A stretch of DNA of 64,000 nucleotides, taken from the IMG/VR virus record IMGVR_UViG_3300046804_005146, positions 1-64,000 of that record; one strand, written 5' to 3'. The notes beneath the pieces are model-generated. The model was not told the origin of the DNA, did no database searches, and was given only the letters and a program-made list of their open reading frames with translations. The stretch comes from a virus. This document shows positions 1 through 30,420 of this stretch, one piece after another. The position numbers were made by a program, and so were the translations under genes. Numbering within the stretch: the first letter of the stretch is position 1; the number at the start of each line of letters is the position of its first letter.

Positions 1-1377
1 ATTCAGATCGTTAGTGTATTCTAAAACTTTTTCTTCTATATGATAAAAAAGATTAGACTTATTGGAATCTATTTCTTTTACTAACTCTGTTAGTTTATAT
101 TGAAATATCTTATTAGTACTTTCTACAAAAGTAGAATATTTTGTTTCAAATGTAGTTTTAACTTCTTCAGTTAATGTCTTTGATACATCTGCTACTTTTG
201 TTTCTATTTTTTTACCTAATTCATCTGAGTATGTTGCAATTTTTTCACTAATCTCGTAAGATAAGTCTGTTTTATTATCGTTAATTAGCTTATGCAATTC
301 AGAAGATTTGAGTTCAAATATTTTGTTACTCTCTTCTGAAACAAACTTATCATTACTAATTTTTATATTAGCTAATGCTTCATTTACTAATGCAGTAGCT
401 GATTTTTCAAAATCCTGTTTAGCGTCACCCGCTATTTTTAAATATTGTTCGATTAATTTATTTTCACTCTCATTAACTGAGAGTTTAATGTTATCGTTTA
501 TATTATTAAATGTTTCTTGATTACTTTCTTTTATTAACTTTACTTGCTTGTCAATATCACTTGAAAGCTCTTTTGCAGATAACTTAAAGTTTGCTTCTAA
601 TCTTGTATCAATATCATTTATTAAACTCGTTAAATCTGTTGATGCTTTTTCTAATACTACATTTAATATTTTTTCTTTTTCTTGTTCAAATAGATTGGTA
701 AGTTTTTGGGTATGCTCAGATATTATAGTAGATGATTTTTCTGCAATATCATTTGAATTTAATTGTTTTAATTCCGCAACTATATCTTCTAATTTTTTCT
801 CTGCAACTGTAACAAATACATCTTTATTCTCTTCTATTACATGGTAGAAGTGCTCAAGTAATTTAGTTTTATATTCTTCTAATTTTGAATCAACAATTTT
901 ATTAGCATACTCTGTTTGTTCTTTAATTAGAGATAATTGCTGTTTTTGCTTTTCTATATCTAGTAGAGCTTGTTCTTTTAGTTTTGTTATTTCCTTTTGA
1001 ACTGAAGTGTCTACTGGTGTCTGAACTTTTTCAGTTATAAGCTTATCTATTTTAGCAGGAACGTGGTGTATTAATTTCGGTACAGGTGAATAGTTAGCTT
1101 GTGTTACGTTGGATTCGTTTAGATGAACTCTTACATCTGCTTTTTCTTTTACTAGTAAAAAAGTTACATTATGATAAACTTTATCACCAAGTGTAAAGTC
1201 TTTAATTCTTACTAGCGGACCTGTTCTAGTATTATCAACAAATTCTGCAATAAAAGATTTACCGTTAATTTCGACATTATAAATATCGAAAAACACCTCT
1301 TTGTAGTTATCTACAAAGAGGATGTTGTTGTTAGAATTAACAGCCGGTAAATTAACCCCATTGAGAATGCAGTCCAT
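1..1377 (-). CDS. Large coiled-coil protein, partial (runs off window start)
   Basis: Not in ORF track. ATG at 1377 (MDCILNGVNLPAVNSNNNILF...); frame open at both ends where I translated it; E/K/I-rich; TAAATA 6 nt upstream. Confidence 0.75.
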   Translation of the reverse strand, partial: MDCILNGVNLPAVNSNNNILFVDNYKEVFFDIYNVEINGKSFIAEFVDNTRTGPLVRIKDFTLGDKVYHNVTFLLVKEKADVRVHLNESNVTQANYSPVPKLIHHVPAKIDKLITEKVQTPVDTSVQKEITKLKEQALLDIEKQKQQLSLIKEQTEYANKIVDSKLEEYKTKLLEHFYHVIEENKDVFVTVAEKKLEDIVAELKQLNSNDIAEKSSTIISEHTQKLTNLFEQEKEKILNVVLEKASTDLTSLINDIDTRLEANFKLSAKELSSDIDKQVKLIKESNQETFNNINDNIKLSVNESENKLIEQYLKIAGDAKQDFEKSATALVNEALANIKISNDKFVSEESNKIFELKSSELHKLINDNKTDLSYEISEKIATYSDELGKKIETKVADVSKTLTEEVKTTFETKYSTFVESTNKIFQYKLTELVKEIDSNKSNLFYHIEEKVLEYTNDLN

Positions 1378-1386
1378 TAATAATAT

Positions 1387-2358
1387 TTATTGCTTAGACA
1401 TCTTGACGTGTGGAGTAGAAACGTTTGAAAGATTACTAGAATACTTATATAGAACGTTAGAATTATTTGCTCTAACAGGGTTAATATCAATACCACCACG
1501 TCTTGCATACAAACACATAACAAACAGCTCCTCTGGTTCAAACTTATCATACAAACGTTTGTAAATGCATTCACAAATTTCTTCATGGAAATGACATTCA
1601 CTTCTAAACGAAACAATATACTTCAACAAGCTAAGTTTATCGATGCTATGTTTGCCGACATAATGGATAAACACATCACCCCAGTCTGGCTGACTAGTGA
1701 CACGGCAATTACTCTTAAGTAATGCAGAGTGGAAGTTATGTTCTACTGCTAAGTTATATACTGCTTCACTCTTTAAAAGATCAGGTGTTTCTTGAAAAGT
1801 GTCAAACATTGCTGATACAATATCCTTTTCATTTATAGATGTTTCTAGCGTATTGTAGTAATATTTTTCGTACGCTGCATGAGCATTTACCTTTACTGTA
1901 TCGTATTCTTGCGGTGTAATAAAACCAACTGACACTTTAGTGTCTAACAGTTTAGATAGATCTGCACTTGCTATCTTAGTAAACTTATCAATAGCTAAAT
2001 GAAAAGACGATCCCATCTTCTCCATGTTAAAGCTATTGAAGTACAGTTTAATAGACTTACTTTCAACGATATACTTACTATCACATGGATACTTTATCTT
2101 AGCTACACCTGTAACGGGACAACCATTATCGAGTAGAAAAGAACATTCATATGCATTCCAAGTATCGAATCCAACGAAAGGCAAACTATCATCTTTGATA
2201 CCTAGATACGTGCGATTATTCTGTCTTGGTTCTTTTACAAGAAGAGAACTATCGTATGTACTCTTGTATTGAGATACCTTACCAAGATGCACACTGATGT
2301 TTGAATTGTCTAGTACTTGATTCATATTAAAGTTTAATTGTTGGTTTGTATTTTTCAA
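1387..2358 (-). CDS. queF: NADPH-dependent preQ0 (7-cyano-7-deazaguanine) reductase, bimodular type
   Basis: IVESKSIKLYFNSFN, catalytic SNCRVTSQPDWG, FHEE, YARRGGIDINP. Confidence 0.93.
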   Translation of the reverse strand: MKNTNQQLNFNMNQVLDNSNISVHLGKVSQYKSTYDSSLLVKEPRQNNRTYLGIKDDSLPFVGFDTWNAYECSFLLDNGCPVTGVAKIKYPCDSKYIVESKSIKLYFNSFNMEKMGSSFHLAIDKFTKIASADLSKLLDTKVSVGFITPQEYDTVKVNAHAAYEKYYYNTLETSINEKDIVSAMFDTFQETPDLLKSEAVYNLAVEHNFHSALLKSNCRVTSQPDWGDVFIHYVGKHSIDKLSLLKYIVSFRSECHFHEEICECIYKRLYDKFEPEELFVMCLYARRGGIDINPVRANNSNVLYKYSSNLSNVSTPHVKMSKQ

Positions 2359-2890
2359 TAGTAGATCTGATAATAGAGTATCTTTCTTCTACACCACCAG
2401 ATAGTCTAACAATATTGTTCAATTTATACTCACTGATATAGTATTCAAAAAGATCGATAATTTTGTTTCTAAATTCAATATCAATACTTCTCACACCATC
2501 ATCAACCAACGGTATCGATGGATCAGTATAAAACATTAAATCATATCTACCTTTCAATTGCTCAAAAACATATTCAGCATAATGACCAAGTCTGTGATCT
2601 AAATTTTGCTTATAACTAATATAAGTTGTATACACCAATCCATCCAACGCACATCTATCAAACACACAATCTCTATCTTTATTTCTCAAAAAGTTATCAA
2701 CATGACTGTTGATAGTCATCATTTGAGTAAAGCTAGTACCATGCTCATTAATAGAAATACTATACCTTTCTTTTAAACTTCTAGTTATTTCAGGCTCAAA
2801 ATGCCAGTCTTTGAAATATACATCTTCTTTCATCTTATTAAGAAGAGTACTTTTACCTGAACTCTGTGCACCTGTAAATGAAATAATCAT
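2327..2890 (-). CDS. P-loop nucleotide/nucleoside kinase-like protein (AAA_28/thymidylate kinase-like)
   Basis: N-terminal GAQSSGKST, FDRCALD, DDGVR lid. Confidence 0.75.
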   Translation of the reverse strand: MIISFTGAQSSGKSTLLNKMKEDVYFKDWHFEPEITRSLKERYSISINEHGTSFTQMMTINSHVDNFLRNKDRDCVFDRCALDGLVYTTYISYKQNLDHRLGHYAEYVFEQLKGRYDLMFYTDPSIPLVDDGVRSIDIEFRNKIIDLFEYYISEYKLNNIVRLSGGVEERYSIIRSTIEKYKPTIKL

Positions 2891-3690
2891 CTGCGTAGAA
2901 TAGACTTAAACATTGTAGTATTGTAATAGATGTTATCCATCTCAGTATCATTAACTTTATGTTCAATTAAGTCTGCTAATTTCACAGTTGGTTTATCATT
3001 GAGCCCAAAATCACTATTATATCTCAATCCTTGAATACCAGCCACGACAGGATTAGACGTATCACAACTCCTAATATTATAAATGTTATTGTCAACATAA
3101 TATCTAAATTCTTTAGCTAATGAACACCCGAGTAGATGATGCGGTTTATTCCAATTCCAAAAACCGTCTTGAATAAGACGGTTAATAAATTGCTGTCTAC
3201 CATTACACCAACGTTCAAGTTTGTTTCTACCTCTACCAGTAATAATATAATAAGAAAAATCGAAACTGATTGCAATATAATCGGCATTTTCTGACATAAA
3301 CCTATAACAATCTACTAGTTCATCATAAGTCTTACCTTGCACGGCTCCAATCTTTACCCCCGGTAAATTCTTGTATTCGTTTACAAACTTAACATAACTA
3401 TTTACAGTCTCGTAAGCATCTTCCAACACATCAGGCACGATATAATATGTTGGCTTAAGACTATCTACATACCCTGCAAACTTTTTGCTATCAAAAGCTT
3501 TACCTAACTCAAAAATACTATTATCTAAAAGAACATCTCTATTGTTGAGTAATGAATGCTTAAAAAAATTATAATATTCGGAGTGTTTCTCAAATAGATG
3601 TACTAATGCATAGTCATAGTCATTATACACTAGAGAGTTTTTAAGAATTGAAATAGGAGATTCGTGTGAAACTAAAATTTTATTACCCAT
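2887..3690 (-). CDS. TGT/DpdA-like TIM-barrel base-exchange enzyme (putative 7-deazaguanine insertion)
   Basis: LLDNS, IVPDV, AVQG, HHLLG, SCDTS motifs in TGT order; first gene of operon with queF. Confidence 0.65.
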   Translation of the reverse strand: MGNKILVSHESPISILKNSLVYNDYDYALVHLFEKHSEYYNFFKHSLLNNRDVLLDNSIFELGKAFDSKKFAGYVDSLKPTYYIVPDVLEDAYETVNSYVKFVNEYKNLPGVKIGAVQGKTYDELVDCYRFMSENADYIAISFDFSYYIITGRGRNKLERWCNGRQQFINRLIQDGFWNWNKPHHLLGCSLAKEFRYYVDNNIYNIRSCDTSNPVVAGIQGLRYNSDFGLNDKPTVKLADLIEHKVNDTEMDNIYYNTTMFKSILRR

Positions 3691-3695
3691 ACACT

Positions 3696-3722
3696 ATTAT
3701 AGTAATTCTTTGATAAAATCAA
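3696..3722 (-). promoter_or_regulatory. Sigma70-like promoter of TGT-like/kinase/queF operon
   Basis: TTGATT-N15-TATAAT-N5-ATG(3690). Confidence 0.6.
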
Positions 3723-7996: not shown

Positions 7997-8138
7997 TTAG
8001 AAGTAATTGCAAAATGAGCTTTTTACAAAGAATAATGTATTCTTTATCTGACAGGCATAGATATCTGTTACCATGCCTGTCATAAAAGCCGTATGAATCA
8101 CCGGGATCAAGTTTAAAAAGAATTGAATCATATTGCAC
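7986..8138 (-). CDS. Small hypothetical protein (50 aa)
   Basis: Not in ORF track. GTG start, MQYDSILFKLDPGDSYGFYDRHGNRYLC...; fills gap between nrdJ and Bfd-like gene; a second 44 aa frame is also open. Confidence 0.35.
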   Translation of the reverse strand: MQYDSILFKLDPGDSYGFYDRHGNRYLCLSDKEYIILCKKLILQLLLNGR

Positions 8139-10338
8139 ATGCACCTCCTGCACAAGCTTGAGCTCCTAACGTTGTTGCATCTACATGTGATTCATTCTCT
8201 TCTACTACAGTAGACCAATCTATCTCCTTATATTCTCTCTGTAAGTCGCACCATGTCTTCCAAAGGGAGACATGCTTTAGACAGTGAGTAGCTTTACGTT
8301 TGTTACCATTGAAATATCTATCTGCAAATTGATGCAAACGTCTATTCCAATCAAGCTTTCTCCATTGCGAATCACTCTGCGGGCAATCTTTAATTTTCTC
8401 ACCTATACCGAGAGCACTGTCGCAGGCAGCCCATAAGTTGTTCTTGAAAGCATGCAATCCATCAACAATTAACCCACTTGCAAATACTGCAGCATCACCA
8501 TACTCTTCTACTATCTCTTTTGCATTAAGAACAGTTGCAAAAGGTGCCTGTGGATAATCTAAGTCACCAGAAGCAGATAGAAGAGAGATTCCAGCAAACC
8601 ATTTTCTATTTGTGTAGATGTAATCTCTAACAACGTCCCACTCATCTTCTGCTACCGTAATGGTATTACTGACATTATGTCTAAGAGCAGGTGAAACACA
8701 AAGCTCTTTATTAGTACCAGCTTCTACCCAATTCTGTTGAGTCAATTTAACTTTCTCTAATAGATCAACAGCTTTCAAATTATTCTTTGTAACAGCCCCT
8801 TTTGGTACTTCACATAGAAACGATACAACTTTATCAGTTTGTGTAGCACTCCATACAGAAGTTTCTACTGCAAGAGGATTAATTTCTTCGAATTTCTGAA
8901 GAGGAAATTCAAGATGATTTGCTTGCACACGACGGATATAGCGTTTTGCGTGGTGAGGATGGATACCGGAAGCTGTACCTAACACACAAGAAGTACTACC
9001 AGCTGGTTTAACGCAAGTAGTTCTAGCAGCTGCATTTATACCAATCAACTTAGCAATCTTCTTATTCATCTTCTTAATCTCTTGAGCACCTTTACGTTGA
9101 ATTTCTGGATTGAGAAGAATTTCTGGGTTATCCATAATACCGGTTATAGAGCAACCTAACAAAGCTTCTTTATCGGTAATCTCTTTTGTCTCTTTTGACA
9201 AATATTTGAAGTCTGTGTATCCAGCCTGTAAAGTACCAATAACAGCAGCAGCTCTACAAGCCTGTAAAAACTTTTCTTCTGTATCACAGTACTTACCGTT
9301 AATTTCGCAGAGATTGCAGAATTGCCATCCACTACGACCATCTTCCGTCTGAGGATACAGACCGATTTCTACACAAGGGTTATACCCACAATCTTCATTT
9401 TCTGCGAATACAAATCCTGGTTCACCGAATTGTTTTGTTGATTCGATAAGCTTTGTAAACTCTTCTTTAGTCACCTCATCTTTAACAAGTAAGACTGAAT
9501 TGTTAGATCTAGCTCTCTGAGGATTATCAATAAACCAAGAACCTGTTTTAGCATTCATCATTTCACTATCGGTCTTACTGAACAGACAGATAGTGGCTGA
9601 TCTACGAACACCACCTGATAGAACTGCATTACTGAAATGCATAATCATATCATAAACATCAATAGAACGTAGTTTAACGGAATCTTTATTATGCAGTCTG
9701 TTGAGAATGATCTTACGAGCTTTCTCTAACGCTGCTCTAAGACCTTCTGGTCCAGGAGCTTTAAACTGACCAGCAATTAAAGCTCCTTCTGGTCTGATTG
9801 TCGAAAGATCATATTCGATATCATATCCAAAGAATTCAGAATCTTTGACAAGAAACGATTCCACCAACACTCTAACGCATTCTGACCATCCTTCGATACT
9901 ATCTTCTGGAGTAAACACTTTTCTGCCTTTAGTAGTAGCATAAGCGTTAGGCAGCTTATTAATGTGTTTATGCTGTACACTGAAACCAACACCACACCCA
10001 CAAAGAAGCAAATACATTGCTTCAGAAAATGCAGCAGGACGATCAATATATCCAAAACTACAGTTAAATACTTTTGCATTATGTTTAAAGACTGGTTCAC
10101 CGCCAAATTGCAATATACGTTGAGCCCCTAACACCCTTTTCTTTTTTACTTGAGTTTTAGCAAACTCTAATTCTTTAACGAGTTCTGGGTGACTGTTAAT
10201 TGCATTTTGATATCTAGTAGAATGCATATCAAAAACGCGGTTAACCATCTCATCCCAAGACTCTCTGCGCTTTTTCTCAGGTAAGTAACGCGCATATTTT
10301 GCGTAAATTGTGTAATCAGATAGTGCTTTGACGCTCAT
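8128..10338 (-). CDS. nrdJ: Class II (adenosylcobalamin-dependent) ribonucleotide reductase, monomeric RTPR-like
   Basis: FNC, GGVRRSA, YNPCVEI, TCVKPAGSTS, C-terminal CAGGAC. Confidence 0.85.
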   Translation of the reverse strand: MSVKALSDYTIYAKYARYLPEKKRRESWDEMVNRVFDMHSTRYQNAINSHPELVKELEFAKTQVKKKRVLGAQRILQFGGEPVFKHNAKVFNCSFGYIDRPAAFSEAMYLLLCGCGVGFSVQHKHINKLPNAYATTKGRKVFTPEDSIEGWSECVRVLVESFLVKDSEFFGYDIEYDLSTIRPEGALIAGQFKAPGPEGLRAALEKARKIILNRLHNKDSVKLRSIDVYDMIMHFSNAVLSGGVRRSATICLFSKTDSEMMNAKTGSWFIDNPQRARSNNSVLLVKDEVTKEEFTKLIESTKQFGEPGFVFAENEDCGYNPCVEIGLYPQTEDGRSGWQFCNLCEINGKYCDTEEKFLQACRAAAVIGTLQAGYTDFKYLSKETKEITDKEALLGCSITGIMDNPEILLNPEIQRKGAQEIKKMNKKIAKLIGINAAARTTCVKPAGSTSCVLGTASGIHPHHAKRYIRRVQANHLEFPLQKFEEINPLAVETSVWSATQTDKVVSFLCEVPKGAVTKNNLKAVDLLEKVKLTQQNWVEAGTNKELCVSPALRHNVSNTITVAEDEWDVVRDYIYTNRKWFAGISLLSASGDLDYPQAPFATVLNAKEIVEEYGDAAVFASGLIVDGLHAFKNNLWAACDSALGIGEKIKDCPQSDSQWRKLDWNRRLHQFADRYFNGNKRKATHCLKHVSLWKTWCDLQREYKEIDWSTVVEENESHVDATTLGAQACAGGACAI

Positions 10339-15487: not shown

Positions 15488-15650
15488 TAATCTTAGTTAG
15501 TTTGTACCCATTTTTTGTTTCTTCCCAAAGAATTTTATCACCAGTTTTCCATCCAGCTTGATCTAATAAGCTATCAGGAAACTCAATATATAAATCTTCT
15601 TTATCTTTTTTAACATCAAGCAGCCATACTAATTTATTTTTCTTTTTCAT
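15474..15650 (-). CDS. AbrB/MazE-like small DNA-binding protein (58 aa)
   Basis: Not in ORF track. LYIEFPDSLLDQAGWKTGDKILW; overlaps both neighbours. Confidence 0.65.
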   Translation of the reverse strand: MKKKNKLVWLLDVKKDKEDLYIEFPDSLLDQAGWKTGDKILWEETKNGYKLTKINDNI

Positions 15651-16237
15651 GAGATTACTTTAGTAGTTGCAATAAAAATATCGTCATTGGTAGAGTAGAA
15701 TACATTAATTACATCTCTCATAAAATCCTCTACTTGAGCGTTATTTAAGTTGGTACTATATGCAAATGCAGGAGCTCTACGACCAGCTGTAACGTTGATA
15801 CCTGTATGACCTAAAGCTACATTATTCTTGGTGTATGTGATACTGACGCTGCATTTACCGACTTTTTGTTCTGTACCATCACTACCTTTAAAAGTATCAT
15901 GCACCATCAAATCATCTCCATCCACTTCAATAGGCTTCTTTAGATACTTGTTTGACAAAATATTTGCAATTTGTGTATTAAAAAGTCTCTGATAAGCAAC
16001 TGCTCCAAATGCATCCAAGTTAGGAATTTCCCAACAAAAGTTAATAGCATCGTCACTGTAAATAAAATCGTTTTGAAGAATATCTTCACTATCGATCATT
16101 CCATCAGCTTGCACATTCATAGGAGCTCTAAACGATACAATATTGCCAATTGGTAGAGTATTCTTACGGAAATACTTATACGCAAAACGATTATGAATCA
16201 AAAGACCGTCGTAAACTTTTACATCGTTAATAATCAT
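15647..16237 (-). CDS. DUF366-like protein (biotin/lipoate ligase-like fold)
   Basis: YDG..IH, MIDSED, YQRLF, GDDL, KCSVSI, HTGINV. Confidence 0.65.
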   Translation of the reverse strand: MIINDVKVYDGLLIHNRFAYKYFRKNTLPIGNIVSFRAPMNVQADGMIDSEDILQNDFIYSDDAINFCWEIPNLDAFGAVAYQRLFNTQIANILSNKYLKKPIEVDGDDLMVHDTFKGSDGTEQKVGKCSVSITYTKNNVALGHTGINVTAGRRAPAFAYSTNLNNAQVEDFMRDVINVFYSTNDDIFIATTKVIS

Positions 16238-16265: not shown

Positions 16266-17099
16266 TCAACCTTCAACTATAAGTTTTTTCCAAAATGATA
16301 ATTTTAATTTGGTTGTGTCAAAGGTTTTATTATAAAAATTGCTAACTTGATTTTTTAGAAAAGATACAGTTACGTCATTCCAATTGTTTATAAAAAGTAT
16401 AGGCAATTCAGTAAAATTTCTAAAACAATCATTTTGTTGCACTATAGGTACACATCCAAGATATAATGCTTCCCATATTCTATGACAATCAACCCCGTTA
16501 CCAGGTGGCGATATTATAAACAAACTGGATGCCATTTTTTCTAAATACTGGTCATGAGCTAGATGTGACCCCATATGTATACCGTTATTTGCTGTCACGG
16601 TATCAATTGTTTTTCTTTGATAGAAGTTGGTATTAATATCAAAATTTTTATAAACTAATATCTCTTTTTTTACACCTTTATCTATTACATTTTTTAAAGT
16701 GTTGAGATTACCGTGAGGCCATTGTTTATTAGCAATTCCTATAGGAATAGGTATTAATTTTGGATGATTAACTACAGCATTCTGAGCGTACCATTTAATA
16801 ATTTTATTTGAATTTAAAAATTGAATAAATCTTTCTTCCACAGGTTCATCAGCATTATGAGTTATTAATTTAACCGGTTTATTAATTTTAGGAAATGTTT
16901 CTCTGAAGAAAAGATCTAAATCATGCCCGTATACGAAAATTATATTTTCATTATCCTTTAGGTAGAATTCATCTTTTTTTCTTAAAACCGTTTTAGTGTT
17001 AGGTAACTGATTAGGCATGTTACAGCTAACAACACCAATATGTGTGATGTCAGCTATTTCTTGTAATCGTTCTCCAGAAATAAATTCGTTTAATTCCAT
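16266..17099 (-). CDS. Exostosin/GT47-like glycosyltransferase
   Basis: SPPGNGVDCHRIWEALYLGCVPIV; start moved to ATG 17099. Confidence 0.75.
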   Translation of the reverse strand: MELNEFISGERLQEIADITHIGVVSCNMPNQLPNTKTVLRKKDEFYLKDNENIIFVYGHDLDLFFRETFPKINKPVKLITHNADEPVEERFIQFLNSNKIIKWYAQNAVVNHPKLIPIPIGIANKQWPHGNLNTLKNVIDKGVKKEILVYKNFDINTNFYQRKTIDTVTANNGIHMGSHLAHDQYLEKMASSLFIISPPGNGVDCHRIWEALYLGCVPIVQQNDCFRNFTELPILFINNWNDVTVSFLKNQVSNFYNKTFDTTKLKLSFWKKLIVEG

Positions 17100-17827
17100 C
17101 TTGAATCCCACATGTGTACACAAACTGTTTCTTCTCTTATATAATTTCTATAGTCATTACCTGCATCTTTATCTCTTTCAAAATTAGGAAAAGGGTAAAA
17201 ATAAGCTACCGGGTAAACTATAGCGTCATTATAACTTTTAATATATTTAAAAAGCTTTCTAGTTAAATACCAAGGACCTGTAGATTTTATAATAGCCATA
17301 CCATCGTAATCTTCAACCTGTTCAATGTTATTCAATTCTTTTAATAACGGGTGATTAGGAACACTACCTATCAAACCATTAAACAGTGTCGGTTCTTTAT
17401 CATAAGCTACTCCAGTAAAGAAATTATGATGTAGTAATTCATCAAAACTTTTTATACCTAAAAAGTCTGTATCTAAGTATATACCTCCAAATTTTTCTAA
17501 AACAGCGTATCTTAATATATCAGAACGTTGACCAAAGTTTTTGCAACTTAAAAATAAATTCTTGTTATTGAAGTCAATTGTTTCAACCTCTTTATCAGTC
17601 CATAATCTGTATTCGTAATCTGGGTTAGCAGATTTAACTGAATCCATATACTTTTTTAAATTACTGTCCGGCTCACTACCCAACCAAATTTGGTGAATTA
17701 TTTTAGGTATCACTTTAGCACCTGACGTTTGTCTATTATTAAAAAGGTATTCAAGTAATTGCCATTTTTCCGGTAAATTTTTATCTCTATAACTAGAGCT
17801 TCTAGCCATTAATTCATTAAATTTCAT
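17090..17827 (-). CDS. GT32 (OCH1-like) DxD glycosyltransferase
   Basis: IPKIIHQIWLG, SDILRY..GGIYLDTD. Confidence 0.88.
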   Translation of the reverse strand: MKFNELMARSSSYRDKNLPEKWQLLEYLFNNRQTSGAKVIPKIIHQIWLGSEPDSNLKKYMDSVKSANPDYEYRLWTDKEVETIDFNNKNLFLSCKNFGQRSDILRYAVLEKFGGIYLDTDFLGIKSFDELLHHNFFTGVAYDKEPTLFNGLIGSVPNHPLLKELNNIEQVEDYDGMAIIKSTGPWYLTRKLFKYIKSYNDAIVYPVAYFYPFPNFERDKDAGNDYRNYIREETVCVHMWDSRWN

Positions 17828-18597
17828 AGTATAAATTTCTCCACATTTGGTAAATTGATATAAAGATCACTATCATCTCTGTCTGGTTTAAGCTTCCACA
17901 TGCCACCTTCTTTAGTAAAAGGCATAATAATTCTTTTATGATTTCCTAAAAATGCAGCCCACCAAGAAAATGATGATTGTGATGTTGCTATATTTTCACT
18001 ACAAAGCAGTGTCGTAAAATCTACCATACCTCTTTTATCACTGTGATGTTCAAATTTATCTACATACCCTTCAGTATTTAAAGTGCACCCATCACTAATT
18101 AATCTTCTAACTGTTTCGCAGTTAGAGTTATCTGTTACTATAATAATGTCTTTAAATCCAGAGCTATCTATCATTTTTCTATAAAAATCGTAACCTAAAA
18201 ATTTACCTATTTCTATATAATCTGTCTCTCTAACATGTACCACTAATTTATCTTTATTTGTTACAATTGGTTGTATGTTAAAAAAATACTTTAAACTTTG
18301 TTGGTGAAAATAATAATATAATGTTTTCTGTACAAAAGAGTCAACGATAATATCTCTATCAGTTAACAGTAACTCATCATAGTTTACGTGATTATTACCG
18401 TAACTACGCGTATGAATAGGGTTAACCGGTTTTACAGCTTCATTCATACTACCTGTAACATTAAAGTTAGGTAACGGTGGTGTGTATAATTTACATCCTT
18501 TGTCTTTTGCCAAACAGTATCCAAAGGCAAATTGAAATAATCTATTACCCATTCTACCCCAATCATCATATTGTACGAAAACACTCACCAGTAACAT
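17824..18597 (-). CDS. GT11 alpha-1,2-fucosyltransferase-like
   Basis: GRMGNRLFQ, VHVRETDY, SSFSWWAAFL. Confidence 0.85.
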   Translation of the reverse strand: MLLVSVFVQYDDWGRMGNRLFQFAFGYCLAKDKGCKLYTPPLPNFNVTGSMNEAVKPVNPIHTRSYGNNHVNYDELLLTDRDIIVDSFVQKTLYYYFHQQSLKYFFNIQPIVTNKDKLVVHVRETDYIEIGKFLGYDFYRKMIDSSGFKDIIIVTDNSNCETVRRLISDGCTLNTEGYVDKFEHHSDKRGMVDFTTLLCSENIATSQSSFSWWAAFLGNHKRIIMPFTKEGGMWKLKPDRDDSDLYINLPNVEKFIL

Positions 18598-19427
18598 CCT
18601 CCTTCCACTAAATCTTTCTTTTCAGGTATTTCATGTTTCATAGGCTCTGTCCAATGTTCATTGAATAGTGGTTGAAATTCTTTTATCTCTTTCCATCTTT
18701 GACCTTTTATACCAAAAAGTATTTGAGTAGCTCCACCTAAATGTATACCGGCTTTACCTAATCGTTTGCATTCAGCTGCTAATAAAAACGATGTGTAGCC
18801 TGTGCCTATAATAGCTACATCAAATGTTTCTTTACGTATAGCTTCTATATAAAATTTATACACTTCATCAGAAGTTTTATATTTGTTTGTAGATGTAATT
18901 TTTAAAGCAAACGGATATTTTAAAACTTTTAAAGTGAAATTAGGTATTATTTTTCCTTTCCAAATTCTTTCTAAATTAGAAAAGTTTTGACGAATAGAGT
19001 CTCCGAAAGGACTTATAACCAACACTACTTTATTTTCTAGATATTTAGTCCACGGTTTTTCAAAAAAATATGGTTCTAAATGTTGTAGCTGCGTAAAATA
19101 TGTATTTTTAGAGCAATATTTTTCAAAAACAAATTTTTCAAAATCTGGAATTACTCTATTCCAAATAGGTAATAAATCTGCTATAGATAGAGCGTTTTTC
19201 ATATCTGCAGCAAACTGTTTAGTTGTTTCCGGTGTATAAGGATACAACCCAGCAATATCTTCTACTTCATGCTGTAAATGAGGTAAAAAATTATTTGCAG
19301 AGTTTAATAAATGATCGCAATATAACAGATTCAACTCTGTTACACCTATTTTACCTGCGCATAATGGTTTATTGTTCTTTAAATAATGAGAGATAAAATT
19401 GTTTCCATCAACAACCATTGTTCTCAT
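18585..19427 (-). CDS. Putative GT-D-fold-like glycosyltransferase
   Basis: KIGVTE, LEPY..PWT..L, FDVAIIG, IHLGG; within GT operon. Confidence 0.55.
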   Translation of the reverse strand: MRTMVVDGNNFISHYLKNNKPLCAGKIGVTELNLLYCDHLLNSANNFLPHLQHEVEDIAGLYPYTPETTKQFAADMKNALSIADLLPIWNRVIPDFEKFVFEKYCSKNTYFTQLQHLEPYFFEKPWTKYLENKVVLVISPFGDSIRQNFSNLERIWKGKIIPNFTLKVLKYPFALKITSTNKYKTSDEVYKFYIEAIRKETFDVAIIGTGYTSFLLAAECKRLGKAGIHLGGATQILFGIKGQRWKEIKEFQPLFNEHWTEPMKHEIPEKKDLVEGGCYW

Positions 19428-20193
19428 ATATAATGTATGTCTGTGTATTACTCCACCATACCTTATCTCCCAACAAAGCTTTAATATCCATAGTGCTTCT
19501 ATTTTCTTGCACTTTTAACCAGCGTTCATGTAATCCTTCATAGCCTTGATAATACACTTCTTTAAAAATTACATCTTCCTCGTAATAGTAAGCATAATGT
19601 TTGAATCTTTGAGGTAATAACAGCCCTGGTCCGTTTTTACCTTTTAACGTAGGTGGTTCATGTTTTTCAAATTCTTCACCAAACCATGCCCACAATCTCC
19701 TATAAGGTACACGTCTACCTTCACCCCATTCACCTATGACTTTTTGATTTGGACCGACATAATAGTCGCATAAAAAGCACCCCGTCTTACCTTCTTTTTG
19801 AATTAACAGTTGTTCTGCCGCATCCAAATCTTTTGCATCCCACTGTTCATCAACGTCAATCTGCCAGAGAAAACATTTATCTGTTATGCGTTTAATTTCT
19901 GATATAGCTGCGTTAACTTGTTGGTCTTTACTATCCCAAGGTCTATCTACAGGTCTCAATACTCTAATTTTAGCATTTACATACTTATCTAAAAACTCGG
20001 TAGTGCCGTCTACAGAGCAGAAATTAGAATGAAATATGTCAGGTATAGGTTTACACCAATTGGTTGATCCTCCTGGGTTAGCCACTCCTTCAACTATGAT
20101 CCAATGATCAAAATTTTTGATCATATTTTCATAAAAGTTGTTGTGTAGTAAATGTTTAAAGCCGTTTAATACTATGGTGAATGCAATTCTCAT
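19408..20193 (-). CDS. GT-A (GT2-like) glycosyltransferase
   Basis: SVDGT, WQIDVDEQW. Confidence 0.7.
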   Translation of the reverse strand: MRIAFTIVLNGFKHLLHNNFYENMIKNFDHWIIVEGVANPGGSTNWCKPIPDIFHSNFCSVDGTTEFLDKYVNAKIRVLRPVDRPWDSKDQQVNAAISEIKRITDKCFLWQIDVDEQWDAKDLDAAEQLLIQKEGKTGCFLCDYYVGPNQKVIGEWGEGRRVPYRRLWAWFGEEFEKHEPPTLKGKNGPGLLLPQRFKHYAYYYEEDVIFKEVYYQGYEGLHERWLKVQENRSTMDIKALLGDKVWWSNTQTYIIYENNGC

Positions 20194-20885
20194 TTAATTA
20201 TCCAGTTTGATTTGAAGGTTGGTGTTGGGTGATTTTCTTTCTTTAATAATATCTTTTTATTAGGTATATTCAACTGTTCGACAAAATTAGCCATAGCACT
20301 ATCTACTAATGCAATACAATTAGCTTTTTCAATAATTTTACGCCAATAAAAAATACTGTGTTTATCATTAATTTCTATAATTTGATGTTTACTTTCAAAT
20401 TTAACATTTAATTGTCCTCTAGAATGTTTAATACCGACAAGATCATATTTTTCTTGTTTAACATACAAATCATAAACTTCATTTTCTTTTTCTATATTTC
20501 TATTGTAAGTTAATGACCATTTTTTATCAAAAGGTACTTTAGCTTTTCTATATTTAAATTCATCAAATTTTTCAGGTCCAAATCCATCGCCTTCTTTTAC
20601 ATACTCATCTGTAACCATGCTACCAGGAAATGTTGCAGCTAAATCAAAAATAGCATCAGGTTTGTAATTAATTAAAGTGCCTTTAGCTTGTGGTACACAA
20701 TTGTAAACATCATCTGTTACCGGTAAAAAACTAACATAAGGTGCAGCTTCAGTAAACATACTAACATACTGATGAAATATAGGCCAAATTACCTTTACAC
20801 CTAACTCGTTATAATAACTTGCTATAGGTAAGCATATTATTAAATCTCCAAGTTTACCAGGTTGGATTATACCTACTGTTTTCAT
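20190..20885 (-). CDS. GT9-like glycosyltransferase
   Basis: KLGDLIICLP, LVDSAMANF. Confidence 0.6.
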   Translation of the reverse strand: MKTVGIIQPGKLGDLIICLPIASYYNELGVKVIWPIFHQYVSMFTEAAPYVSFLPVTDDVYNCVPQAKGTLINYKPDAIFDLAATFPGSMVTDEYVKEGDGFGPEKFDEFKYRKAKVPFDKKWSLTYNRNIEKENEVYDLYVKQEKYDLVGIKHSRGQLNVKFESKHQIIEINDKHSIFYWRKIIEKANCIALVDSAMANFVEQLNIPNKKILLKKENHPTPTFKSNWIIK

Positions 20886-21478
20886 ATTTTAATAGACGAT
20901 TTATAAACTCCGGTGTATACTCCTTCTTGAATTGCAGGTCTAGTGTAACAAGATCTTAACCCTTCTTTTTCAATCATTTCATTTAAAAAGTGATCTGGTG
21001 TTTTTGGATTAATACTCCAATGCTTTAATATTTTTCTAACCGCGTCTAAAGTTACCATATAGCAGTGAGCACAACGTGTTCTATAATCAGGGTGATAATA
21101 AACATGTTTACCTTCTATATTTTCATATGGTTCTATTTCACAACAAGTACCATGAAACATAATATCTCCTTTTAACCCTCTAAACTCCTTTAAAAAAATC
21201 TCTTCATATTTCCTATATTCTTTCCATAACACTACATCATCTTCAAATATAGTAGCTATTTCTACATTGTTCTTATCCATGTGTTCAAAAACGTATTTGT
21301 GCTTAAGATACAAAGAGTATTCTCTAATATTAATAAATCTATGTTGCTCAGGTAGTTCGATGTGTTCTGGTAAATACCCGGTAACCCAAATGGGATCAAT
21401 ATTTAGAAGTTTGAAACAGTGATCTAAATATTTTTTACGTTGAGTTAGTGGTGTGTGATGTAAAACGTAGTAATTCAA
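20882..21478 (-). CDS. GT25-like glycosyltransferase
   Basis: YVLH..RK, SLYLKH, IFEDD, AHCYMVT. Confidence 0.75.
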   Translation of the reverse strand: MNYYVLHHTPLTQRKKYLDHCFKLLNIDPIWVTGYLPEHIELPEQHRFINIREYSLYLKHKYVFEHMDKNNVEIATIFEDDVVLWKEYRKYEEIFLKEFRGLKGDIMFHGTCCEIEPYENIEGKHVYYHPDYRTRCAHCYMVTLDAVRKILKHWSINPKTPDHFLNEMIEKEGLRSCYTRPAIQEGVYTGVYKSSIKI

Positions 21479-22224
21479 ATTGCACCTCCTTGGGTGTCAA
21501 CTTTACTCCAGTCAGGAGTAACACCGGTACGTATACTAACAATCTTAACATCGTTAATTCTTTCTTGAACTAAATCGTACCATAATTTATCGCTTATTTT
21601 ATTAGTATCAGCTATTGCCATTCTATCTGCTACCCCGTCTTTTTTATCTTTACCTAGTACCCAATGACGGTGTTCTATCATAATATCACCACGATACTTA
21701 AGTCTACCTACTGATGAGAACACTTGATGTAACCATTGATCGACCCAGTTAATTTTAAACTCTTCTCTCATGAACTTACCGTCCATTATATTTGCATACT
21801 CTCTATGACAGAAAAAATTAACGGCTAATTTTTCGCCATGATATCCATCGTTACAATGTATTCCTAAAATTTTATCATCTGGTGCATTTTTAAATTCTGT
21901 TAATAGCATTTCATCCCAATTAGGTGTCTTGAATACCATATCATCACCTATCATTGAAATAATTTCTTCATTAGACGCAGCTACACATTCATTCCACATT
22001 TTACCGAGACCTATAAATTTACCTTCATTGTGAATGTTAACTATTTTAACGCAAGGTATAGCATTAGCTACCTTTGTAATGATTGGTAATGTGGGATCAT
22101 CGTCATCCACACCAAAATAGATATTAACGTTATTAATATCTTTAACAGTGGTTAAAATAGACATTAACATTGTTAAACGTCTGTTCATTCGTTCACGAGA
22201 TGGTACTAATATTGCAATTTTCAT
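21475..22224 (-). CDS. GT2-like glycosyltransferase
   Basis: ILVPSRER, GVDDDD, IGDD, IEHRH. Confidence 0.75.
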   Translation of the reverse strand: MKIAILVPSRERMNRRLTMLMSILTTVKDINNVNIYFGVDDDDPTLPIITKVANAIPCVKIVNIHNEGKFIGLGKMWNECVAASNEEIISMIGDDMVFKTPNWDEMLLTEFKNAPDDKILGIHCNDGYHGEKLAVNFFCHREYANIMDGKFMREEFKINWVDQWLHQVFSSVGRLKYRGDIMIEHRHWVLGKDKKDGVADRMAIADTNKISDKLWYDLVQERINDVKIVSIRTGVTPDWSKVDTQGGAI

Positions 22225-23486
22225 TCTGGATATCCTTTGTCAAATTCATCAAAAACCTGACCGACAAACTCACCGTCAGGTAAAGCCACGTGAGGCGGGA
22301 AAGGTTTCTTTTCTATATATGTGCAGTGCACTTGAGCTGCGTTTTTAATCAACGGGTATACTCTATCTGCTAAAAAGAACTGATCGCACGAATATTTGTC
22401 ATATTGATTCCAATTAGCAATCATACCCCGTATATTGTTTATATATCCTGGAGTACCTCCCCACAAACCACCTTGAATTGGAAATACGTGATTCTTATGA
22501 TCTCTCATAATATGGAAGGGTTGCTTTGAATCAATCCAATCAGTTACTGCCACTGCTTCTTTTCTATTAAATCTTGAGTCAGCATCTCTTATACAAAAAC
22601 GTTTAACTGATAAATCGTCATTTACCCAGAAACGCCAGTACATACCTTCAAATGAGCCTAAACCACCTGGAGTTTGATAAACTTGGCAACCTAAACCATG
22701 TAGTTTTTTAGCAAACTCCATATCTATTGTCTTGTCAATATAGAATCTTAATTTCCACCCAGGGTAAACAGATTTTGCTAATTCAATATTTTTTAAAGCA
22801 CCGTAACGATATTTTTCTTTATTACCCCATAGACTTATTGAGATGATATTTGAACCGTTTAAGCTATATAAATATGCAAAGTCTTTTAATGTTTTAACAT
22901 AATGATACGAAACAGGTTCATTATACTCATCGTTATATACTGTATAGTTATGAGGATGTATACCTTCTAAATGATCAAATTTTATTTTCAATCTTCTCAT
23001 TACAGACCCAAAAGTAACGTCACCGTAACCTGTTCTCTCTAGAGGTATTTCAGGTAAAGATGTAATTAAATTTCTACTTATACAATAACCAGCTCCACCA
23101 GAACAATATTCAAAATCTTGACCCATTGCAGTGTATACTGGATTCAATGGGTCACTTTTTTTGTTTAAGACGTATCCCCAAACTCTATTAGGGTCAACGA
23201 TTCTAAGCTTTTTCTTTAAATTTTCTGTAAAAATAAAAGTATCATTATCACAAAAACAGAACCAGTCATATTGTAAATGTTTGTAATTCTTAATTACATA
23301 ATTGATACCAAAAATTTGCTTCTCTTCATTACTTGCATATGTATCGTTATCTGTACATTTTAGTTTGTAATCACCCTCTTCATCAGTTAGATAAAGATAC
23401 TCTTGACCTTTCAACCAAGTGTTTAGTTGATTATAATCCCTTTCAGGTTGATGTTTTGTTGTAAGTATTAAATACAGTACTTTCAT
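22221..23486 (-). CDS. Two-domain glycosyltransferase (Fringe/GT31-like plus second GT-A-like domain)
   Basis: WFCFCDNDTF and SGGAGY; then ISLWG..YPGW, RDADSR, HIMRDH. Confidence 0.7.
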   Translation of the reverse strand: MKVLYLILTTKHQPERDYNQLNTWLKGQEYLYLTDEEGDYKLKCTDNDTYASNEEKQIFGINYVIKNYKHLQYDWFCFCDNDTFIFTENLKKKLRIVDPNRVWGYVLNKKSDPLNPVYTAMGQDFEYCSGGAGYCISRNLITSLPEIPLERTGYGDVTFGSVMRRLKIKFDHLEGIHPHNYTVYNDEYNEPVSYHYVKTLKDFAYLYSLNGSNIISISLWGNKEKYRYGALKNIELAKSVYPGWKLRFYIDKTIDMEFAKKLHGLGCQVYQTPGGLGSFEGMYWRFWVNDDLSVKRFCIRDADSRFNRKEAVAVTDWIDSKQPFHIMRDHKNHVFPIQGGLWGGTPGYINNIRGMIANWNQYDKYSCDQFFLADRVYPLIKNAAQVHCTYIEKKPFPPHVALPDGEFVGQVFDEFDKGYPE

Positions 23487-24309
23487 TTTTCAATTTTTTA
23501 ATGATTTGAATTACTTCTTCTTTACCAACAAAAGGAGGCTGATTAGGGTAATGGCCGTGTTTACGTAAGTAAATTTCTCTACCACCATACACGTTTTTAG
23601 CCCACTGTTCGGATTTATTTGCAATGGAAGAGTTATCTATAGCTCCCGGTGCTTCAGTTAAATACTCTGTGCTATCAGCTAAATCAGCAAACCACCAAAA
23701 TGGTGGGTGGTAACCTGCTTTGATAATACGGTATGTATGGTCTACATGCTCCCATGCGTTATAAAATTCTTCATCAATATAACCTACCTTTTCTAAAACT
23801 TCTCTTGTAAAAAAAGAAAACATAGCTACTGTATGCTCATATAGTGCAATCTTCAAATCTTTACTATATTCTATAACAATTTTTGGATTAGGTTCACTGT
23901 GTTGATCTAATAAATGTCTGTTATGTAAATCAAAATTTTGAATAGTTTGTTTTCTATTAAAAGGAGAGCCAGGGCCGTAATTAAAGTGATGTATACCTGA
24001 TAATTTAAATGCTTTAATATACTTGTCGAATATTTCTCCGTTTTTAATAAGCATATCATCTTCAATAATAAAGATGTAATCGCAATCTTTATCATAAAGA
24101 TATTTCATGGCTTTATTTTTAGATTTACCTACCCCTAAATTTTTAGGATTATCTAACCAAACACCAAAAGATAAATCAAAATCGTTGATAGGGGATCCGT
24201 CATTTACAACTACCAATTCATTAATTTTGCTGTATGGAATCGTGTTTAAAAGGTTGCGTAAGTAATCGGGTCTATTACAAGTAATGATGCCTACACCTAT
24301 TTTAGCCAT
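23443..24309 (-). CDS. GT2 glycosyltransferase
   Basis: IITCNRP, VVNDGS, IEDD, VGYIDEEF, EHVD. Confidence 0.85.
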   Translation of the reverse strand: MAKIGVGIITCNRPDYLRNLLNTIPYSKINELVVVNDGSPINDFDLSFGVWLDNPKNLGVGKSKNKAMKYLYDKDCDYIFIIEDDMLIKNGEIFDKYIKAFKLSGIHHFNYGPGSPFNRKQTIQNFDLHNRHLLDQHSEPNPKIVIEYSKDLKIALYEHTVAMFSFFTREVLEKVGYIDEEFYNAWEHVDHTYRIIKAGYHPPFWWFADLADSTEYLTEAPGAIDNSSIANKSEQWAKNVYGGREIYLRKHGHYPNQPPFVGKEEVIQIIKKLKNESTVFNTYNKTST

Positions 24310-27880: not shown

Positions 27881-28687
27881 TTAAACCTTTAATGCTTTAT
27901 CCCAAATTTGTAGATGCAGTCTATTGGAAAACTTAAAGCCATGTTTCTTACAAATATCAGCTACAGCTGGCGCAACATTTGTAAGCTCATTACGGCTACC
28001 ACACATAGGCATAATCCAAACACGATTGCGTGGGAGATTAATGTCAGGGTTATTAATAAATTTAGTAAAAACTTCATCTAGATCTGATTCTTGTTTAGCT
28101 ACAAATTTAAAGCACGCATATTGTTGTACTAAAAACTTAAGGACGTCCGGCTTGAAACGTTTATCTTCCGGGTCTCCATTATTAGTTAGTTTTGGTGAAG
28201 TTGTGAATGTACAAATCCATTTACCACTATCAACCCATTCCTGATCTGGCATAACAGTACCATTAGTTTCAAAGTCAATATAAAGATCAGGTTTGTCATT
28301 TTCTGACCTATCTACTACTTTATCAAAACTACTAAACCCCCAACGTTCGTGTATAAATTTAACAAATTCAATTAAATTTTTCTGTTGAATAAAAGGTTCA
28401 CCACCAGTAATCTTAAAAATTGCACCTTCTCTTAAACGATCATGGTATCCGTTCTTTTCAAAAAATTGAGCAATCTCTTCGAAAGTCATTTTATTCTTTT
28501 TAGACCAACTTACGTAGCTATCACACCCAAAAGGTGCATCTTCACTCTTAAAACCAATGCACGTGAGATTACACATTGATAGTCTCATGAATACTGACGG
28601 CCATCCGATATACTCACCTTCACCTTCAAGAGTGTAAAATACAAAGTCGTCTGATAAAAACAAGGTCTTACTCGGATCAATATTCAT
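27881..28687 (-). CDS. queE: 7-carboxy-7-deazaguanine synthase (radical SAM)
   Basis: FYTLEGEG, FMRLSMCNLTC..CDS, TGGEP, ETNGT, SPKL, RLH. Confidence 0.9.
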   Translation of the reverse strand: MNIDPSKTLFLSDDFVFYTLEGEGEYIGWPSVFMRLSMCNLTCIGFKSEDAPFGCDSYVSWSKKNKMTFEEIAQFFEKNGYHDRLREGAIFKITGGEPFIQQKNLIEFVKFIHERWGFSSFDKVVDRSENDKPDLYIDFETNGTVMPDQEWVDSGKWICTFTTSPKLTNNGDPEDKRFKPDVLKFLVQQYACFKFVAKQESDLDEVFTKFINNPDINLPRNRVWIMPMCGSRNELTNVAPAVADICKKHGFKFSNRLHLQIWDKALKV

Positions 28688-30389: not shown

Positions 30390-30420
30390 AGAATTATTAT
30401 AGTTTAGATTTTTCAAATTT

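Follow-up and report, generated by a model that had tools for sequence, protein, structure and literature searches.

The DpdA3 subfamily of 7-deazaguanine transglycosylases was founded by Cui, Hutinet et al. (2023, PMC10516641) on three phage proteins, phiST CGPG_00065, CP220 gp056 and immuto_2-6A gp206. The main text of that paper reports complete replacement of guanine in the DNA of all three phages, against 0.1-30% modification for the other DpdA subfamilies. It also records that DpdA3 alone failed in Escherichia coli, with the remark that other enzymes may be required, and that the 7-amido-7-deazaguanine (ADG) nucleoside was observed in CP220-infected cells. For Campylobacter phages, an earlier proposal cited in Hutinet 2019 has the polymerase use a modified dGTP. 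Here we describe a cassette of three minus-strand genes, for a DpdA3-type protein, a P-loop kinase and the nitrile reductase QueF, located in the first 64,000 nucleotides (the window) of the IMG/VR virus record IMGVR_UViG_3300046804_005146. Since its DpdA3 is homologous to those of phiST, CP220 and immuto, the cassette is a further member of the systems described in 2023. Almost certainly it is the central part of a system of the DpdA3 type, by which a 7-deazaguanine takes the place of guanine in the DNA of the phage.

An annotation made from the sequence without database searches (the first-pass annotation) had suggested, from the tight coupling of the transglycosylase to a kinase, that exchange occurs at the nucleotide level. 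We put at about 0.5 the probability that the base is exchanged on a free deoxynucleoside or nucleotide and that phosphorylation and incorporation by the polymerase follow, a route each step of which we infer. This reading is backed by the contrast between the partners of DpdA3 and those of other DpdA subfamilies, by the replacement of one kinase family with another at the same position and by the near restriction of both AAA_28 kinases to DpdA3 phages, which support it without proving it. The very high replacement of guanine also predicted by the annotation has already been reported for three phages with DpdA3 (Cui 2023, PMC10516641).

The closest described system is the fdPreQ1 system of immuto (PMC10516641). 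Its DpdA3 is 52% identical to that of the window, the order (DpdA3 ... kinase-QueF) is the same, FolE, QueD and QueE are encoded nearby in both, and the main text of that paper gives complete replacement of guanine for immuto. Unlike immuto, the window encodes no DpdN formyltransferase in the interval from DpdA3 to the kinase, and a search of the 81,508-bp record of which the window is part (CheckV completeness 39%) did not reveal one. Nor was any phosphoribosyltransferase (PRTase) or PRA-PH gene found in that record, and the window carries a second AAA_28 kinase. The dADG system of CP220 (Firehammervirus) resembles the window in its DpdA3 (45% identical), in a kinase (36.5% identical) immediately downstream and in a second AAA_28 paralogue elsewhere in the genome (positions 5416-5847 of the CP220 record), three P-loop kinase-like genes being present in CP220 in total. 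It differs in that no QueF lies beside the DpdA3-kinase pair, in a pathway said in the main text of PMC10516641 to stop at 7-carboxy-7-deazaguanine (CDG)/ADG, and in a fusion of an HD domain to a kinase upstream of DpdA3, whereas no HD gene was found in the lineage of the window.

Proteins of the cassette

The first-pass annotation had recognized a TGT/DpdA-like enzyme (TGT, tRNA-guanine transglycosylase) by five short motifs, all of which are present in the 267-amino-acid protein in the order given: LLDNS (residues 54-58), PDV (86-88), VQG (117-119), HHLLG (184-188) and SCDTS (208-212). Residues D56, E61, P86, D87, R165, H185, L187, G188, D210, S212 and P214 are invariant across 80 relatives. 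The protein matches 0 Pfam families at E <= 1 (PF01702, TGT, included) and 0 NCBIfam families, and a single-sequence search against PDB sequences gave nothing meaningful. PF01702 was likewise reached for the phiST DpdA3 only via HHpred, according to the main text of Cui 2023 (PMC10516641). The protein does match PHROG 19058 (8e-58) and, by tblastn, immuto_2-6A gp206 (51.8% identity, 2e-70), CP220 gp056 (44.9%, 4e-52) and phiST CGPG_00065 (24.8%, 1e-4). The record of gp206 annotates it as 'DNA guanine transglycosylase DpdA'. On this homology we assign the protein to the published DpdA3 subfamily, which the annotation had not named. Its relatives number 3,486 at E <= 0.001 in 90% clusters, with 1,516 representatives at 50% identity.

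An AlphaFold (AF2) model built on 80 relatives has a predicted local distance difference test score (pLDDT) of 96.8. Foldseek returned TGT structures for all of the top 50 matches (best E 4.1e-8), and VIA-align superposed the model on archaeosine TGT 1iq8_A (Z 18.3, root-mean-square deviation (rmsd) 2.9, 235 aligned residues) and Zymomonas mobilis TGT 2z1x (Z 18.0, rmsd 3.1, 234 aligned), which confirms the TGT fold. The protein is modelled as a DpdA-type TIM barrel of this fold without the zinc subdomain: the CxCxxC...H subdomain is absent, there are only four cysteines (128, 162, 189 and 209) and the chain ends 57 residues past the catalytic Asp. Candidate catalytic aspartates, from motif-level evidence and their invariance in the 80 sequences, are D56 (LLDNS) and D210 (CDTS), with equivalents in the Z. 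mobilis enzyme that we take to be D102 and D280.

A profile of the DpdA3 family found a sole match among PDB sequences, the bacterial DpdA 7ui4_A. This match is weak (E 0.41), and its alignment pairs the HHLLG and DTS motifs of DpdA3 with HLLG and IDS. With hhalign, the DpdA3 alignment and nine DpdA1/DpdA2 sequences gave a probability of only 22.6%, with D56 and D87 opposite conserved Asp residues of phage 9g DpdA, so that sequence alone does not unite DpdA3 with DpdA1/DpdA2. Longer forms of DpdA3 include fusions to Formyl_trans_N (DpdN-like; P0138 and P0169), three fusions to DUF3310 (the metagenomic representatives P0266 and P0250, and L088:5983-7251) and one extension that is NUMOD3 (P0144), the other extensions being unassigned. 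No AAA_28-type fusion was found when the kinase was compared by BLAST with the extensions of these longer forms.

The 187-amino-acid kinase is assigned to Pfam AAA_28 (PF13521; 1.2e-15, 58.6 bits against a cut-off of 27) and to PHROG 2107, 'thymidylate kinase' (1.9e-29). It carries a Walker A motif (GAQSSGKS, residues 7-14), PEITR (33-37), DR (78-79) and a lid (DDGVRS, 130-135). Across 52 relatives the Walker A motif, E34-x-T36-R37, D78-R79 and D131-G132-x-R134-S135 of the lid are invariant. The name 'thymidylate kinase' derives from PHROG 2107 and from RefSeq record annotation, and at E <= 1 the protein has no Pfam hit to the thymidylate kinase family PF02223. With an AF2 model (pLDDT 89.9), the best match of a wide VIA search was the ribosylnicotinamide kinase (RNK) domain of NadR (8x7f_A: Z 19.6, rmsd 2.5, 174 aligned; 6gye: Z 18.6, rmsd 2.9, 172 aligned), followed by vaccinia thymidylate kinase (Z 16.2; thymidylate kinases generally 15-16) and human deoxyguanosine kinase (Z 15.8; other deoxynucleoside kinases also match). 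Polynucleotide kinase 4gp6 reached only Z 10.1.

Because the nearest folds are those of NadR RNK, thymidylate and deoxynucleoside kinases, the protein is predicted to be a small-molecule nucleoside or nucleotide kinase, and the model would be compatible with a 5'-OH and a 5'-phosphate acceptor alike. This agrees with the annotation, which had called the protein NMP-kinase-like. Since the nearest structure is a nucleoside kinase, exchange could take place on deoxyguanosine (dG) instead of dGMP. NadR itself, although both proteins belong to AAA_28, has nicotinamide mononucleotide adenylyltransferase and helix-turn-helix domains that the 187-amino-acid protein lacks, its sequence similarity is marginal (E 0.18-0.28) and it belongs to NAD rather than deazaguanine metabolism. 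A role in NAD salvage was rejected because the linkage to DpdA3 persists in CP220, where no QueF lies beside the pair. A role like that of 5-hydroxymethyldeoxyuridine (5-hmdU) DNA kinase was rejected since neither preQ1 nor ADG has a hydroxyl group that could accept a phosphate.

The second AAA_28 kinase consists of a kinase domain (residues 3-163) and a C-terminal extension of about 90 amino acids. Both kinases are present in all five related virus records that were searched. In a collection of 50,697 phage records, tblastn with the second kinase gave 17 matches, all in Campylobacter (13) or immuto (4) phages. The first kinase matches 87 phage records, with no genus that bears DpdA1 or DpdA2 among them, and beyond the Campylobacter and immuto phages it matches only distant Streptomyces-phage genes. 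These relatives, in 66 Streptomyces phage records, are 25-30% identical and annotated 'thymidylate kinase' (for example, L087, Jay2Jay 68249-68878), and they sit among replication genes and MazG without DpdA3.

QueF contains both of its domains (Pfam QueF_N 6.8e-31, QueF 2.4e-22). It aligns with Vibrio cholerae QueF 3bp1_A (7e-43) and keeps ESKSxKLY, the Cys of SNC(R/L)xTxQPDW, FHE and RRGGxDINP. Its score against the NCBIfam equivalog TIGR03138 is 259.6 bits, under the cut-off of 293.45. With the QueF motif, the catalytic Cys and the His-Glu pair conserved, the enzyme is predicted to be catalytically intact, as the annotation had it.

Structure prediction was also applied to the DpdA3-kinase pair, using a pass mark that 58 of 80 solved complexes and 2 of 110 mismatched pairs reach; scores of 0.60 or below among the passing pairs come from only 7 of the 80 solved complexes and from both passing mismatches. 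The pair scored 0.46 (runs 0.01, 0.50 and 0.46) against 0.00 for the best control, with runs agreeing in at least 91% of contacts and a partner pLDDT of at least 78. This lends weak support to a predicted complex.

Partner genes of DpdA3, DpdA1 and DpdA2

The first-pass annotation had proposed a check of whether TGT-like and kinase genes co-occur across phages, and the outcome was strongly positive. IMG/VR was scanned twice, with the protein family of the window and with a member 36% identical to the window protein as seeds. Each scan gave the best 80 of more than 540 confirmed relatives and, after deduplication, 129 unique loci remained, a sample in which relatives of the two seeds are over-represented and which does not consist of independent lineages. 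An AAA_28 kinase lies downstream of DpdA3 on the same strand in 110 of the 129. The gap is at most 60 nt in 49 loci, 60-1200 nt in 47 (often with a DpdN-like formyltransferase between), 1200-3500 nt in nine and more than 3500 nt in five. In six others, less than 2.5 kb of downstream sequence was available, and 13 with at least 2.5 kb have no AAA_28 kinase.

Among isolated phages, 32 records have a DpdA3 match and one locus was inspected for each of eight groups. A small P-loop kinase-like gene is found near DpdA3 in seven of these eight lineages and abuts it in six. In CP220, gp057 (AAA_28, 1.7e-12) is directly downstream and gp055, an HD + AAA_33 fusion, directly upstream. In CC_R7, whose DpdA3 is 29% identical, an AAA_28 gene (4.8e-10) is directly downstream and is followed by the DNA polymerase. 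The kinase of immuto lies two genes downstream of DpdA3, just 5' of QueF. In other lineages the gene is directly upstream: CGPG_00066 of phiST (159 amino acids, AAA_18, 9.4e-7), a 156-amino-acid AAA_18/AAA_33 gene (1.5e-7) in Chryseobacterium phage MA9V-3, and proteins of 187 and 183 amino acids in Bacillus phage BSTP12 and Weizmannia phage Youna2, respectively, each with an N-terminal Walker A motif and weak family hits only. Other deazaguanine phages have no homologue of CGPG_00066, according to the main text of Cui 2023 (PMC10516641). In the eighth lineage, Rhizobium phage RHph_I1_18, DpdA3 is fused to a DUF3310 domain. The DUF3310 domain of the fusion aligns to residues 123-185 of T7 gp1.7, annotated 'nucleotide kinase' in the T7 record. 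Counting this fusion, kinase-like genes of differing families (AAA_28, AAA_18/33, DUF3310) are associated with DpdA3 in all eight isolate lineages.

As controls we took phage 9g and eight further loci from 30 evenly spread rows of the 233 records found by tblastn with the 9g DpdA. Like DpdA3, the DpdA1 and DpdA2 enzymes (phage 9g, Queuovirinae, actinophages) and the bacterial DpdA-DpdB system belong to the TGT superfamily and use a 7-deazaguanine made by FolE, QueD, QueE and QueC. DpdA1 and DpdA2 differ in their length (about 300-360 amino acids), in partial, motif-dependent modification (0.1-30%; main text of PMC10516641) and in their neighbours. Within about 4 kb, none of the nine DpdA1/DpdA2 loci matches the kinase hidden Markov model at E below 1 or contains a genuine small open reading frame (ORF) with Walker A, in line with the annotation's premise that post-replicative exchange needs no kinase. 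In five of the nine (9g, JG054, Me-ZS1, RHph_X3_2 and a Stenotrophomonas phage) the genes after DpdA encode a sliding clamp and a DNA polymerase. In three (Cracklewink, Sonali and Finch, with actinophage DpdA2) a ParB-like gene lies just upstream, a neighbour that, by analogy, recalls bacterial DpdB. Only hypothetical neighbours surround DpdA in the ninth, Vibrio phage V07. These arrangements (loci L176, L177, L179, L180 and L184, and L181-L183) suggest that DpdA1 and DpdA2 act on DNA with the assistance of a clamp or of ParB. The partners of the DNA-acting subfamilies are thus DNA-binding proteins, and those of DpdA3 belong to nucleotide metabolism.

Genes of dNTP pyrophosphatase type also occur beside DpdA3: MazG in phiST, PRA-PH in immuto and the HD domain of CP220 gp055. 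Directly upstream of DpdA3 in one kinase-less IMG/VR locus is a MazG-DUF3310 fusion (L151:7396-7998), and directly downstream in another a DCD/dUTPase-like gene (L136:7704-8219). A DCD/dUTPase-like gene also follows the DpdA3-DUF3310 fusion of the Rhizobium phage. Enzymes of the dNTP pyrophosphatase type would suit a nucleotide route, in which they would convert dGTP to the substrate and clear the pool. Two further kinase-less loci have Vut_1 genes near DpdA3 (L148:7275-7946 and L128:9624-10331), a family that we take to be YhhQ-type preQ0/preQ1 transporters.

We found no paper on the link between DpdA3 and kinases in literature searches, and the word 'kinase' is absent from the main text of Cui 2023 (PMC10516641), the supplements of which may list kinase genes. 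Relative to the searched literature, the conserved pairing with a kinase and the contrast with DpdA1 and DpdA2 are new.

Gene order, signals and genomic setting

The features of the window are collected in the table. Three minus-strand ORFs were found as annotated (2887..3690, 2327..2890 and, from a TTG start, 1387..2358). They had been described as overlapping and as lying behind one promoter. DpdA3 and the kinase do overlap, the ATG of the kinase sharing the sequence ATGA with the stop of DpdA3. QueF could begin at ATG 2325, 1 nt past the kinase stop, or at TTG 2358 (323 amino acids, 32-nt overlap); the ATG is the likelier start, and an overlap between kinase and QueF exists only with the TTG. 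With either start the three genes are tightly packed.

As for the promoter, a promoter-like sequence is present. Its -10 box is perfect and ends 5 nt 5' of the DpdA3 ATG. It was matched by sequence and was not reported by a promoter consensus scan, because its spacer is 15 nt and the scan demands 16-18 nt. Promoter-like sites in the region are no commoner than in shuffled sequence (16 against 13.7, standard deviation 4.2). Terminator-like sites number three, against 0.6 expected from shuffles, and the hairpin beyond QueF falls within the next ORF if that ORF begins at 1377.

Table. Features of the window (positions on the 64,000-nucleotide stretch)
Feature	Coordinates	Strand	Evidence or remark
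Predicted DpdA3-type 7-deazaguanine transglycosylase, 267 aa	2887..3690	-	TGT fold, DpdA3 homology
Predicted AAA_28 P-loop nucleoside/nucleotide kinase, 187 aa	2327..2890	-	Pfam AAA_28, fold
Bimodular (type II) QueF, preQ0 to preQ1 nitrile reductase, 312 aa	1387..2325	-	Pfam QueF_N + QueF
Promoter-like TTGATT (3722-3717), 15-nt spacer, TATAAT (3701-3696)	3696..3722	-	Sequence match
Terminator-like 11-bp hairpin, then T run	1296..1321	-	66 nt 3' of QueF stop
Ribonucleotide reductase-like gene	8128..10338		
DUF366 protein	15647..16237	-	Pfam 2.2e-23
Ten consecutive genes, sugar-transfer block	16266..24309	-	Glycosyltransferase-family Pfam hits in seven
Second AAA_28/dNK-like kinase, 257 aa	25046..25819	-	Pfam AAA_28 3.5e-8, dNK 7.7e-5
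QueE-like radical-SAM protein	27881..28687	-	phmmer match to phiST QueE
QueD (PTPS family)	29706..30416	-	Pfam PTPS 4.1e-16
FolE, GTP cyclohydrolase I	30607..31263	+	Pfam GTP_cyclohydroI 7.1e-47
801-aa protein	31566..33971	-	Many tandem helix-turn-helix matches
QueC	50163..50981	+	PF06508 1.4e-56, 186.7 bits, above cut-off
Three coupled ORFs	52385..54191	+	Adjoining queC

FolE, QueD, QueE and QueC had been placed elsewhere in the window, and they are there. The QueE-like protein, for which Pfam gives only a weak hit under the cut-off (Fer4_12, 4.4e-4), matches the annotated QueE of phiST by phmmer (E <= 1e-4). Together with QueF, the window therefore contains FolE, QueD, a QueE-like protein and QueC for deazaguanine synthesis. 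When all ORFs of the 81.5-kb record (39% complete) were searched by phmmer, no homologue was found of MazG, PRA-PH, DpdN, PRTase, AAA_18, HD-AAA, MazG-DUF3310, DCD, PolA, Vut_1 or T7 gp1.7.

The window also contains T4-type genes (a gp10-like baseplate gene, the clamp-loader A subunit and a SegE-like endonuclease). Most of the stretch occurs, as contigs, in a single sequencing run only, that of a freshwater metagenome, with no RNA run listed, and the cassette had no megablast match in the phage collection. The phage is an uncultured, T4-like one, probably from that freshwater metagenome.

Some other genes deserve mention. The sugar-transfer block is unusually long for a phage and includes GT47-like, Gly_transf_sug/TcdA-like, GT-D-like, GT25, two GT2 and Fringe-like proteins, the possible targets of which are a DNA base, the virion or the host surface. 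The DUF366 protein has no PHROG match and no homologue in the DpdA3 loci examined.

Base exchange on free nucleotides or on finished DNA

In this system FolE, QueD, QueE and QueC almost certainly make preQ0, which QueF reduces to preQ1, and DpdA3 is the transglycosylase that places the deazaguanine base onto deoxyribose. In the favoured route DpdA3 would swap this base for guanine on free dG or dGMP and not in finished DNA. The product would be phosphorylated by the coupled AAA_28 kinase, possibly with the second AAA_28 kinase, the triphosphate would be supplied by host nucleoside-diphosphate kinase and the phage polymerase would incorporate it. If the polymerase does incorporate a deazaguanine triphosphate, complete replacement would be explained. 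The 81.5-kb record yielded no DpdN formyltransferase, so the incorporated base is predicted to be preQ1, perhaps decorated later, or a different derivative.

The known complete substitutions (5-hydroxymethylcytosine (hmC) in T4, the Z genome and dU DNA) arise at the nucleotide level. In T4 the hmC pathway comprises the dCTPase gp56, the dCMP hydroxymethylase gp42 and the dNMP kinase gp1. As in the proposed route, a monophosphate is modified, a phage kinase acts on it, the polymerase incorporates the product and replacement is complete. The two differ in chemistry (addition at C5 of a pyrimidine as against exchange of a whole purine base) and in that T4 has a dedicated dCTPase, whereas no dGTPase was found in the lineage of the window.

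A broader proposal, which we make tentatively and at slightly less than even odds, is that DpdA3 is the first dG(MP):7-deazaguanine transglycosylase of the TGT superfamily, that dedicated AAA_28 kinases feed 7-deaza-dGTP analogues to the polymerase and that there are two routes overall. DpdA1, DpdA2 and bacterial DpdA, with their clamp or ParB-like partners, would edit finished DNA, and DpdA3 would work at the level of the nucleotide.

Several points weigh against exchange on nucleotides. To our knowledge, every TGT/DpdA enzyme assayed so far works on polymers. The main text of Cui 2023 (PMC10516641) likewise has the assayed TGT/DpdA enzymes acting on polynucleotides, and its authors, to whom the DpdA3 definition is due, propose that the exchange takes place after replication. 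The pre-replicative reading contradicts that published proposal and rests on gene context, from which we infer the substrate of DpdA3; its chances are about even, and where a gene sits inside a DNA-metabolism module of a phage says little about the substrate of its product. The kinase is missing from 13 of the 129 loci, with at least five gains or losses on the DpdA3 tree, and no AAA_28 gene above the cut-off was found in five kinase-less records searched whole, which are 15-61% complete. QueF directly follows the kinase in 104 of 106 loci, a linkage tighter than that of DpdA3 and kinase, which the model leaves unexplained. Only the C-terminal third of T7 gp1.7 is common to the DUF3310 fusions, so that the fusions are no more than suggestive of kinase activity. 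Finally, no MazG, PRA-PH or HD gene was found in the record of the window or in four relatives, one of them 209,282 bp long with terminal repeats and 100% complete, in a search that did not cover dUTPase/DCD or Nudix enzymes. This lineage therefore shows no sign of the usual means by which the canonical dNTP is excluded.

The chief alternative is that DpdA3 flips guanine out of replicated DNA and inserts the deazaguanine, the kinases serving dNTP supply (like T4 gp1) or salvage and being co-located by the clustering of a module. The polymer-acting enzymes and the authors' own proposal (PMC10516641), the 13 loci without a kinase and the failure to find a dGTP-clearing enzyme (MazG, PRA-PH or HD) in the lineage of the window all speak for it. 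So does the position of DpdA3 clusters next to DNA polymerase genes in BSTP12, Youna2, CC_R7 and immuto, as for DpdA1. It is harder to reconcile with kinase-like genes of several families in eight of eight DpdA3 isolate lineages against none of the nine DpdA1/DpdA2 loci, and with two AAA_28 kinases nearly restricted to DpdA3 phages, which would be unexpected of a general dNMP kinase. The zinc subdomain is missing from DpdA3, which also has none of the clamp or ParB-like neighbours present in eight of the nine DNA-acting control loci. In addition, DpdA3 alone left E. coli DNA unmodified, and replacement is complete rather than the 0.1-30% of other subfamilies (main text of PMC10516641). On balance we regard post-replicative exchange by DpdA3 as possible, although we are inclined to doubt it.

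The P-loop protein might instead be an ATP-driven helper of DpdA3 on DNA and a functional analogue of bacterial DpdB, an ATPase that Gedara et al. reportedly found in 2023 to be required for bacterial DpdA to insert preQ0. Translational coupling through the ATGA overlap would fit such a partner, and the ParB-like neighbour of actinophage DpdA2 would make partner proteins a theme of the family. The weakly supported complex (0.46 against 0.00) would fit it too, but fits channelling of a nucleotide equally well and therefore does not decide between them. Since the protein has the fold and invariant residues of nucleoside and nucleotide kinases, with substrate lid and DR motif, has no DNA-binding domain within its 187 amino acids and is replaced in other lineages by unrelated kinase families and dNTP pyrophosphatases, we consider a helper function improbable. 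Least probable of all is a ribonucleotide route, in which a PRTase would join the base to phosphoribosyl pyrophosphate, kinase and ribonucleotide reductase would act before incorporation and DpdA3 would be left with, for example, proofreading of residual guanine. A PRTase is encoded by immuto (gp211, Pfam 1e-8), 35 of about 150 DpdA3 loci contain PRTase-like genes, the window has a ribonucleotide reductase-like gene and the kinase is nearest to a riboside kinase. Yet most DpdA3 loci have no PRTase, no homologue was found in the 81.5-kb record (39% of the genome), and the universal presence of DpdA3 would be left unexplained.

The question of how three or more phage groups replace every guanine of their genomes is thereby sharpened. 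The presence of kinases beside DpdA3, of a clamp and polymerase beside DpdA1 and of ParB-like genes beside DpdA2 yields a specific hypothesis, open to inexpensive tests in the culturable phages CP220, immuto and phiST. If DpdA3 does act on free nucleotides, this would be a new reaction in the TGT superfamily and would explain both why DpdA3 on its own failed in E. coli and why replacement is complete. It would also provide an enzymatic route to 7-deaza-dGTP analogues, which are used in sequencing and PCR. Uncultured phages with fully substituted genomes would become predictable, and the published view that all such modifications are post-replicative would be overturned.

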